Shown here: positions 43,594 through 45,224 of the stretch, in pieces
How positions within the stretch are numbered: the first letter of the stretch is position 1
How the letters are laid out: each line of letters begins with the position of its first letter
Sequence record: MW822008.1
Length of the DNA: 64,000 nucleotides
From: Escherichia phage BF17
Reading direction: 5' to 3' (one strand)
Made by a program: the position numbers and the translations under genes
Notes under the pieces: model-generated
The model's input: only the letters and a program-made list of their open reading frames with translations
Told to the model about the DNA's origin: nothing
Database searches by the model: none

Positions 43594-43995
43594 ATGACTA
43601 CAGTTGATGATATCTATAGCACTATACGCAATATGAGTACAGATAGAAAAGTATTTGGCGATAAAGAAAAATCTAAGTGTTATGGTATTGATTCTTTTGA
43701 TATAATTTCTTATGAGTACAATACAAGTGGAAATAGTTCACTGAATATCGTCTGTCCTCGTGACCCAGAAAATAATTTTATGTATGTTGAAATTAATAAT
43801 GATGGAATGTTTTTTACAAAAGTTTTCAAAGGTGGAATTAATTACGAACCTATTGAATGTATGAATGAAGAAACTTTCTTTCAAGAAGATACAATTATCA
43901 ATTTAGGTTTTAGTTTTGATGATTATAAAACATTAGAACATGACTTTAATCGTTATTATAATGGTTTCTTAAAGGAGTTAACAATTTATCTATGA
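43594..43995 (+). CDS. hypothetical protein
   Basis: 133-aa ORF. Confidence 0.5.
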   Translation: MTTVDDIYSTIRNMSTDRKVFGDKEKSKCYGIDSFDIISYEYNTSGNSSLNIVCPRDPENNFMYVEINNDGMFFTKVFKGGINYEPIECMNEETFFQEDTIINLGFSFDDYKTLEHDFNRYYNGFLKELTIYL

Positions 43996-45224
43996 ATAAC
44001 CAATATATTGAACAAACAATAGTGAAACACTTGGCTGGGTCACAAGCCTACGGAACCAGTACACCGGAAAGTGATACTGATTATCGTGGTATTTTTCTTG
44101 CTAATAAAGAATTTATTCTTACACCCTTCTATAAGGTCAAAGAGGTAGCTGACAAAAGCGAAGAAGATACTAAATTCTATGAGTTGAATCAGTATTTAAA
44201 ATTATACACTGAAGCTAACCCTAATATTCTTGAATCACTTTGGGTTGAACCTGAACACATTGTGGAAAGTACTGAAATTTATGACTATCTTCGTTCATTT
44301 AACCAAAAACTTCTTAGTTCCAAGATTGCATTTTCATACACTGGATATGCATATAATCAGATTAAGCGTATGACAAATCATCACGGTTGGATGGATAAAG
44401 AGCGTATTGCTGAAAAACGATTAAATGAGATTTTAGAAGAACACCCTGTCGATGAGGTTCTTGCGTGGATGTATGATTCATTCCCACAGTATCTTGTTGA
44501 ACGTTTAGATACATCCAACTTACATCCATTTAATGCTAAAAAGATTGATTTTGAAAAATATATGCGTGATACATCATTGCAGTTAGTTTCGAAAAATCCA
44601 TTAAAGCAATATCATTTCGTAAGATTAGTGCATAACTACACTACTGAAAAAATTCTTGATCGTGATTTCAATTTATTGAATTTTAATAATGGTTATGAAC
44701 TAATTCATTACGGAGAAAACATTTTTGCGATTGTTAAGAATCCTAATGAAAGCACTATTAACCATGATGGTTCATTGCGTTATTTTTCAAAAGAACGTAG
44801 TACTGAAGAGTTGAAAACCAAACCAGAACTAATTGTCAAATTTAACGAAAAAGAATATCAGGAAAATAGTGAGAATAGGAAAAGTTATCATAAATGGAAA
44901 GAAAATCGTAATGCCAAACGTGCTATTTTAGAATCACAACACGGATACGATTGTAAACATGCTATGCACACAATCCGACTTTTGAATAGTGCAGAAGAAG
45001 CGTTACAAAGTGGAATTATTCAAGTTAAACGACCAGATGCACAAATGTTGATGGATATTCGTAATGGTAAATGGAAGTATGAAGAAGTATTAGAATATTT
45101 CGATGATAAAGTACAATACATTCGTGATGTTCTATATAAGAAATCAGTACTTCCTAAAAAACCAAACATCAAGTTAGCATCAAAAATTATCATTGATATT
45201 AGAGAAATGCAATGGTATAAGTAA
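43992..45224 (+). CDS. predicted Pol-beta-superfamily nucleotidyltransferase
   Basis: 410 aa; N-terminal GSQAYGTSTPESDTDYRGIF matches the G-[SG]-x9-13-D-x-[DE] nucleotidyltransferase signature. Confidence 0.5.
   Translation: MNNQYIEQTIVKHLAGSQAYGTSTPESDTDYRGIFLANKEFILTPFYKVKEVADKSEEDTKFYELNQYLKLYTEANPNILESLWVEPEHIVESTEIYDYLRSFNQKLLSSKIAFSYTGYAYNQIKRMTNHHGWMDKERIAEKRLNEILEEHPVDEVLAWMYDSFPQYLVERLDTSNLHPFNAKKIDFEKYMRDTSLQLVSKNPLKQYHFVRLVHNYTTEKILDRDFNLLNFNNGYELIHYGENIFAIVKNPNESTINHDGSLRYFSKERSTEELKTKPELIVKFNEKEYQENSENRKSYHKWKENRNAKRAILESQHGYDCKHAMHTIRLLNSAEEALQSGIIQVKRPDAQMLMDIRNGKWKYEEVLEYFDDKVQYIRDVLYKKSVLPKKPNIKLASKIIIDIREMQWYK

Follow-up and report, generated by a model that had tools for sequence, protein, structure and literature searches.

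The stretch analysed here comprises 64,000 nucleotides (nt) of Escherichia phage BF17 (record MW822008.1; the whole stretch is referred to below as the window), and the gene under study, at positions 43992 to 45224, encodes a nucleotidyltransferase (NTase) of the RlaP family. At the DNA level the window is 99.9% identical to Escherichia phage vB_EcoM_phAPEC6 and 99.8% identical to phage 121Q, both of which are Asteriusvirus, i.e., Rak2-like jumbo myoviruses of about 350 kb. In the scan of the window for open reading frames (ORFs), the gene runs from ATG to TAA on the plus strand with 410 codons, for a protein of 410 amino acids (aa), and its G+C content is 32%, compared with 33.6% for the window. 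AGGAG is found 14 nt 5' of the ATG, which overlaps the stop codon of a preceding 133-codon ORF in the form ATGA (43992-43995). The counterpart in 121Q, gp506, is annotated as “nucleotidyltransferase,” and the one in phAPEC6, gp316c, as “hypothetical protein.” The peptide GSQAYGTSTPESDTDYRGIF, quoted in a preliminary description of this DNA, corresponds to residues 16-35 of the protein. The ORF is confirmed as real, with homology far beyond chance.

As judged from its sequence, the protein is a member of a named family: hmmscan matched it to Pfam PF10127 (“RlaP, RNA repair pathway DNA polymerase beta family”) with E = 6.3e-16 and 59.2 bits, the gathering score being 23, in a match confined to residues 13-131 and to profile positions 24-144 of 249, and PHROG 388 (“nucleotidyltransferase”) matched over the full length (E = 3e-76). 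A word-indexed search of a set of 5.8 billion proteins returned 845 homologues, the precomputed PF10127 domain being present on nearly all of the best 120, and an exhaustive search of a 1.84-billion library gave 6871, 3322, and 464 representatives of 50%-identity clusters at E ≤ 1e-3, 1e-10, and 1e-30, respectively. By tblastn, 689 phage records match, including that of T4 NrdC.11, which does so through its N-terminal domain only. No meaningful match to the ORF was found in NCBIfam, no PADLOC family matched at E ≤ 1, and a sequence search of the PDB gave no match either with the protein or with a profile of 55 sequences as query. Neither PF01743 nor PF12627 matched the ORF at E ≤ 1, so that it does not qualify as a CCA-type enzyme; likewise, no sequence-family relation to the aminoglycoside and lincosamide nucleotidyltransferases (KNTase, AAD(9), LinB) was found, nor a sequence relation to Hailong HalB together with an adjoining HalA channel gene.

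The preliminary description had proposed a Pol-beta-type nucleotidyltransferase on the basis of a G-S and D-x-D signature, and this superfamily assignment is borne out by the conservation of the signature together with a third carboxylate, D59, as well as by the predicted structure. In an alignment of 55 long forms (A1; see below for the meaning of long and short), G16, S17, D28, D30, and D59 are invariant, and in an alignment of 80 phage and bacterial sequences, which adds 61 bacterial relatives, the first four are at least 98% conserved and 78 sequences have D or E at position 59. The full Pol-beta signature is present, with hG[GS], [DE]x[DE], and, on the strand that follows, a third carboxylate. 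An AlphaFold2 model built from A1 (mean predicted local distance difference test score, pLDDT, 91.9; predicted template modeling score, pTM, 0.81) has a beta/alpha NTase core from residue 1 to about 131 and a very long helix starting at residue 112, and the position of the catalytic residues relative to model strands 9-15, 30-35, and 60-64 fits the NTase fold. Comparison of the model with known structures by Foldseek recovered this same fold, as the preliminary description had asked of any structure prediction, with fold-level matches to MNT antitoxin complexes, KNTase/ANT(4'), AAD(9), LinB, and DrrA; structures of CdnE were matched only with E of 1.6-2.3 and a probability of 0.08 or less, a level that does not make the protein a CD-NTase.

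For the roughly 350 residues that follow the signature no obvious motif had been noted at first, but this was wrong: eight C-terminal residues (R306, N307, K322, H326, R329, L330, L353, and G359) do not vary across the 80 phage and bacterial sequences, in which the C-terminal motif reads RN..R...(G)YD(T)KHAMH..RL. In the model this part is a helical domain, predicted with high confidence, that resembles HEPN/KNTase-C folds. An RNase of the HEPN type requires the motif R-x4-6-H(-x-Y) (PMC13000451; PMC11586414). In the long forms no R-x4-6-H is conserved: R310-x6-H317 of the window protein is not, position 317 being H in 29 of the 80 sequences. Between the two domains lie a middle subdomain, which falls outside the match to the Pfam profile and has an occupancy of 0.54-0.85 among relatives, and an insertion of about 61 aa, which is specific to Rak2-like jumbo phages and a few others. 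The insertion is missing from relatives of about 350 aa, its occupancy in the 80-sequence alignment is 0.13-0.22, and most library matches consist of two stretches that skip it. Some homologues carry 300-400 extra residues after the long-form body (L073:6245-8587, 781 aa; P0094, 686 aa; and P0121, P0122, and P0125, 680-760 aa); in L073 and P0094 no second Pfam domain was matched, and their C-terminal extension may be an uncharacterized fused domain.

The relation to the canonical, shorter RlaP proteins can be seen in bacteria, for which 80 loci with a relative (L085-L164) were collected. In 44 of them the long form (300-400 aa) adjoins a shorter paralogue (about 250-290 aa). Both genes are read from the same strand, either one may come first, and often the start codon of one overlaps the stop codon of the other; examples of such pairs are L092 (4738-5472 and 5962-7014), L113 (5171-5962 and 5962-7095), and L121 (5171-5977 and 5977-7026). 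All 31 short partners that were aligned are full-length PF10127 proteins. When the alignment of long forms, A1, was compared profile to profile (hhalign) with an alignment of these short partners, A2, only residues 10-129 aligned (probability 98%, E = 2.9e-13, 22% identity), and the C-terminal halves compared alone gave a weak match (P = 0.0026, probability 12%) in which K322-x3-H326-x2-R329 is paired with a K-x3-Y-x2-R helix of the short forms. Because the alignment is limited to the N-terminal domain and the C-terminal match is weak, the window protein is assigned, on these profile comparisons, to a distinct long-form RlaP subfamily without a characterized member, which comprises about 460 of the cluster representatives (E ≤ 1e-30) and thousands that are more distant. 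The window phage encodes the long form only: neither profile revealed a second, short RlaP in the window, and tblastn matched at one place per record. In bacteria, the pair of short and long forms is usually without conserved neighbors, which suggests a self-contained module of two NTases or a heteromer.

What RlaP enzymes do has been predicted from genomes and reported from biochemistry. In jumbo phages, RlaP is the most prevalent template-independent nucleotidyltransferase, its distribution parallels that of RNA ligases, and it was predicted to refill nucleotides cut away by RloC-type nucleases before ligation (Iyer et al., 2021, PMC7824862), a prediction that is credited in that paper to Burroughs and Aravind (2016). 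Two bacterial members, PfRlaP from P. fluorescens and PaRlaP from P. aeruginosa, add one to two nucleoside monophosphates (NMPs) or deoxynucleoside monophosphates (dNMPs) to an RNA 3'-OH, prefer Mn2+, and use neither DNA nor protein as a substrate (Carruthers, Fatma and Huang, December 2025 preprint, bioRxiv 10.64898/2025.12.29.696909). According to the same preprint, they label rRNA, intact tRNA, and cleaved tRNA in vitro with any nucleoside triphosphate (NTP), favor the nick-proximal end of a cleaved-tRNA mimic, and partly restore the aminoacylation of a tRNA short of one anticodon-loop nucleotide; in the crystal structure of PfRlaP, a helical domain is located C-terminal to the NTase domain, on which its last helix packs back. 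In the proposal of its authors, RlaP serves as an antidote to “smart” ribotoxins; they point out that products ending in 3'-OH are suited to 5'-phosphate ligases and leave open whether RtcB could use them. The substrate given as unknown in the preliminary description is therefore an outdated view, since the refilling of lost RNA nucleotides in jumbo phages was predicted for PF10127 (PMC7824862) and addition to RNA 3'-OH has been shown for the two Pseudomonas members (bioRxiv 10.64898/2025.12.29.696909).

The window protein shares with PfRlaP and PaRlaP the Pfam family, through the N-terminal NTase domain, the same set of G-S, DxD, and D residues, the overall succession, as predicted by the model, of an NTase and a helical C-terminal domain, and the company of RNA-repair enzymes in the same genome or operon; it differs from them in being a 410-aa long form with an extra beta-rich middle part and the insertion of about 61 aa, and in having no adjoining ligase. 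T4 NrdC.11 is also a phage RlaP encoded alongside Pnkp and Rnl1, with 28-30% identity to residues 6-150 of the window protein, but it aligns in the N-terminal domain alone and belongs to a different sequence cluster, and the literature reports no function for it (bioRxiv 10.64898/2025.12.29.696909). The class II CCA enzymes (PF01743) are similar in belonging to the Pol-beta superfamily, in adding nucleotides to RNA 3' ends without a template, and in recurring near long-form RlaP genes, but they are a separate family with another neck and body architecture and a fixed CCA specificity. ANT(4') and the other antibiotic nucleotidyltransferases (1kny, 6sxj, 3jyy) have no sequence-family relation to the window protein, act on small molecules, and are much shorter.

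The surroundings of the gene, together with its parts, are listed in Table 1. On the same strand, the window also encodes an RNA ligase of the T4 Rnl1 type, 38 kb upstream of the RlaP gene, a T4-type polynucleotide kinase/3'-phosphatase (Pnkp), and, 17 kb from the RlaP gene, a class II CCA-type enzyme, which agrees with the preliminary statement that this phage has a separate, canonical CCA enzyme; no tRNA genes were found in the 64 kb. The RlaP gene is the last of a cluster of five co-directional ORFs. A predicted promoter heads this cluster, in which case the five ORFs would be transcribed from it, and they may form an early-expressed island within a region of structural genes, tail-fiber genes being located 3' of the cluster. 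The four ORFs upstream of RlaP belong to PHROGs 18641, 7868, and 22376, have no known function, and vary among Rak2-like phages. Three of them, at 41991-43591, are tandem paralogues of 188, 173, and 169 aa (PHROGs 18641 and 7868) with an N-terminal motif like NDR..I...KY.LSK in common, and relatives of these recur in variable number 5' of the RlaP gene in other Rak2-like phages. The fourth, at 43594-43995 (133 aa, PHROG 22376, without a Pfam match), has the stop codon that overlaps the RlaP start; it is kept in place in 5 of 13 Rak2-like loci (37-59% identity), its position being taken in the others by a DNA methyltransferase gene and an ORF of about 100 aa, or by paralogues of the 41991-43591 type. 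A role as a virion-packaged enzyme was considered and rejected, since gp316c is missing from the 62 virion proteins of phAPEC6, in which gp314c, gp315c, and gp323c are present; this absence fits an intracellular enzyme. Elsewhere in the window, an ORF of 323 aa (28407-29378) has a C-terminal WGR domain (PF05406, E = 1.4e-10) and an N-terminal part of 250 residues without a Pfam match; known chiefly from PARP-type enzymes, WGR is an unusual domain for a phage. Directly 5' of the DNA ligase gene is an ORF of 400 aa (12665-13867) that Pfam did not match and that matches only PHROGs of unknown function (14061, and weakly 2475 and 6266).

Table 1. Positions in the window of the RlaP-family gene, its parts, and the features discussed with it.
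Feature	Position	Strand	Basis
RlaP-family (long-form) nucleotidyltransferase gene	43992..45224	+	ORF, PF10127, PHROG 388, DNA identity, annotations
N-terminal Pol-beta NTase domain, residues 1-131	43992..44384	+	Pfam match, hhalign, conservation, order of strands and helices in the model
Catalytic codons	G16-S17 44037-44042; D28 44073-44075; D30 44079-44081; D59 44166-44168	+	
Helical insertion of ~61 residues (~140-200)	44409..44591	+	Gap pattern and occupancy in alignment
Middle beta-rich subdomain, residues ~205-285	44604..44846	+	DSSP strands 210-215, 235-241, 244-249, and 280-284 in the AlphaFold2 model
C-terminal helical (HEPN/KNTase-C-like) domain, residues 286-409	44847..45221	+	Invariant R306, N307, K322, H326, R329, G359
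RNA ligase of T4 Rnl1 type, putative sealing partner	4657..5799	+	PF09511 E=9e-16, PF20819 E=7e-17; RNA ligase in 121Q annotation
T4-type polynucleotide kinase/3'-phosphatase (Pnkp), putative end-healing partner	6623..7555	+	PF25109 HAD_PNKP E=9e-44, AAA_33 E=4e-13; polynucleotide kinase in 121Q annotation
Class II CCA-adding/poly(A) polymerase-type nucleotidyltransferase	61960..63075	+	PF01743 E=5e-18, PF12627 E=2e-9
Cluster of five co-directional ORFs, RlaP gene last	41991..45224	+	Overlaps at 43082-43085 and 43992-43995
Near-consensus sigma-70-like promoter, TTGACG-17-TATAAT, 11/12 matches	41940..41968	+	Pattern scan
Terminator-like hairpin, 10-bp stem, overlapping the promoter	41928-41951		Pattern scan; directly after a 939-aa ORF

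Related viral loci were sampled as 80 contigs with a homologue. In 48 of them (L019-L083, environmental phage contigs) the homologue lies between genes for gp32-like and UvsX/RecA-like proteins upstream and a UvsW-like helicase downstream, a block that is a DNA recombination module and is uninformative about RNA, and in the 13 Rak2-like loci the RlaP gene is upstream of tail-fiber paralogues; given such different contexts, the neighborhood of RlaP is lineage-specific, as is usual in large lytic phages. One recurrent neighbor is a CCA-type NTase gene: 12 of the 80 viral loci have it on the strand of the RlaP gene and 1.5-5 kb upstream of it (L003, L018, L037, L038, L040, L056, L057, L064, L067, L073, L075, and L081), and these represent at least eight lineages below 60% identity. 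Among loci from bacteria or metagenome-assembled genomes (MAGs), the same linkage, within about 0-5 kb and on the same strand, is seen in L086, L135, L150, L151, and L153. It thereby recurs in a separate clade, Oscillospiraceae/Flavonifractor, with only 25-35% identity to the phage proteins, where four loci have the CCA-adding enzyme encoded directly downstream. This linkage points to a possible functional link at tRNA 3' ends. That CCA-linked phages might be without an RNA ligase, which would have favored a ligase-independent role, was also considered and rejected, since the genome of Seunavirus SalP219 encodes an RNA ligase 2 along with the RlaP homologue, the CCA enzyme, and about 27 tRNAs.

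At least 574 relatives are found in species-representative bacterial genomes. In a Thioalkalispiraceae MAG (L087:540-7047), a full-length long-form RlaP of 360 aa (tblastn E = 1e-41) is part of a cluster with Ro60 (TROVE/vWA), RtcB, and RtcA, which also has a tRNase Z-like metallo-beta-lactamase on the opposite strand; in Dokdonia (L092), the long form is encoded between a canonical RlaP and RtcB. Overall, only 4 of the 80 bacterial loci have an RtcB gene no more than 3 kb away, and no conserved operon partner emerged from the 150 immediate neighbors of these 80 relatives, which are heterogeneous, the top Pfam families having three to four members each. An association with RNA-ligase genes, which the preliminary description had suggested looking for in other phages, thus holds in the name of the family and at the level of the genome, with Rnl1 and Pnkp both encoded in the window, but not by adjacency.

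Taken together, the protein probably works as a nucleotidyltransferase that needs no template and adds one or a few NMPs to the 3'-OH of damaged RNA, and we consider it likely, with a probability of roughly 60%, that this long-form RlaP restores lost nucleotides of damaged RNA together with the repair enzymes of the phage. The RNA substrate would be the one extrapolated from the distant Pseudomonas homologues. In such a pathway, host anticodon nucleases or other defense RNases would cut tRNAs and, like RloC, may also remove a nucleotide; the phage Pnkp would strip the 2',3'-cyclic or 3'-phosphate and phosphorylate the 5' end; the RlaP enzyme, with D28, D30, and D59 binding two divalent metals, would replace the lost nucleotide(s) by transferring NMP from NTP onto the RNA 3'-OH; the phage Rnl1, which requires 3'-OH and 5'-phosphate ends, would reseal the tRNA; and the CCA enzyme would handle acceptor ends. 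With Pnkp, RlaP, and Rnl1 all encoded, every enzyme for a chemically coherent pathway is present; we infer their cooperation, as well as the identity of the host nuclease that would be countered.

Several points weigh against this reading. The characterized RlaPs are distant, with only the N-terminal 120 residues or so aligning at 22% identity, and since the C-terminal 280 residues or so are outside the Pfam profile and match the canonical form only weakly, the two could be unlike in substrate specificity. Between the gene and those of the ligase and the kinase lie 36-39 kb, its own surroundings being tail-fiber genes and genes of unknown function, and Rnl1 and Pnkp are each found within 10 kb in 1 of the 80 viral loci. 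The biochemistry comes from a preprint, was done in vitro, and is accompanied by its authors' own list of unresolved points, and the reported activity is that of the bacterial PfRlaP and PaRlaP, none being reported for a phage RlaP (bioRxiv 10.64898/2025.12.29.696909). To carry substrate and product over from the Pseudomonas enzymes is reasonable but unproven.

The alternative closest to this reading keeps the chemistry and moves it to the acceptor end of tRNA, where the protein would work with the CCA enzyme, refilling the discriminator or further nucleotides lost to toxins that cut past CCA and so providing a primer for CCA addition; some HepT/HEPN toxins are said to remove 4 nt. The CCA-type genes near the long forms in viruses and, in a separate clade, in Oscillospiraceae/Flavonifractor speak for such a role, as does the CCA-type enzyme of the window phage itself, but here 17 kb separate the two genes, RlaP has no tRNA genes nearby in 54 related loci, the CCA-linked viral lineages belong to one broad clade, so that shared ancestry could explain much of the linkage, and the RNA ligase 2 of the CCA-linked Seunavirus leaves room for a ligase-coupled model there too; on balance we regard it as unlikely. 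A similarly tentative view is that the long form (the PHROG 388 type) may be a functionally distinct paralogue, which would carry out a second step in RNA 3'-end restoration or form a heteromer with the short RlaP: its pairing with short RlaP, its linkage to CCA genes, and its C-terminal two-thirds, which with the invariant RN...KHAMH..RL are unrelated in sequence to the characterized enzymes, mean that it could perform an undescribed step, and rebuilding acceptor ends beyond CCA is one possibility for such a role.

Less probable than either is an offensive use of the same activity, in which the 3' ends of host tRNA or mRNA would be tailed to block aminoacylation or to mark them for decay, in the manner of MenT or AbiEii, as part of host shut-off. 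The broad labeling of rRNA and of intact and cleaved tRNA by the Pseudomonas enzymes would allow it, and early expression would be consistent with the sigma-70-like promoter that precedes the cluster, but the same enzymes preferred the nick-proximal end of the cleaved tRNA mimic, bacterial relatives occur in repair clusters (Ro60-RtcB-RtcA) rather than in toxin-antitoxin pairs, and no PADLOC or toxin family matched. That the substrate is a protein or a small molecule, as in an MntA-like AMPylation of host HEPN toxins or a modifier of the KNTase or DrrA kind, is quite improbable: the likeness to MNT complexes, KNTase/ANT(4'), AAD(9), LinB, and DrrA, and that of the C-terminal domain to HEPN, is one of fold only, proteins were left unlabeled by the Pseudomonas RlaPs, and, unlike FhepTA, which retains R-x4-6-H(-x-Y) and is compared here together with MntA/HepT, the window family does not conserve the motif and has no PADLOC hit. 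The suggestion in the preliminary description of an interference with host nucleotide signaling has no support, since PADLOC gave no hit and CD-NTase structures were matched by Foldseek at E > 1. Least credible of the proposals is a synthase of signal or decoy oligonucleotides that would subvert host immunity, e.g., through oligo(d)A that keeps the Hailong HalA channel closed, HalB being a tyrosine-primed poly-dA synthase paired with that channel; no PDB chain is related in sequence even by profile, PADLOC gave no hit, and RlaP enzymes add only 1-2 nt and require an RNA 3'-OH. HalB (9dbh/9dbj) differs further in that it has 15% identity and no profile-level match to the window protein, whose gene has no HalA-like neighbor, and its similarity is at the level expected of any protein with an NTase plus a helical domain.

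The gene thus carries an annotation already, belongs to a family that is named and has recently been characterized, and is an ordinary part of the RNA-repair kit of phages. The idea was published for jumbo phages in 2021 and the chemistry was shown in 2025 for bacterial homologues, so that no new concept is involved, the pairing of long and short forms in bacteria and the linkage to CCA genes being side observations worth noting. A coliphage with a tractable host would be a convenient system for a first in vivo test of RlaP function. The phAPEC6 paper states that the phage may counter the Prr system. If repair of trimmed RNA is indeed what the long-form RlaP does, the kit of Pnkp, Rnl1, RlaP, and a CCA-type enzyme would be a phage counter-defense that could reverse not only PrrC-type cuts but also the “cut and trim” attacks of the RloC type, which defeat plain religation.

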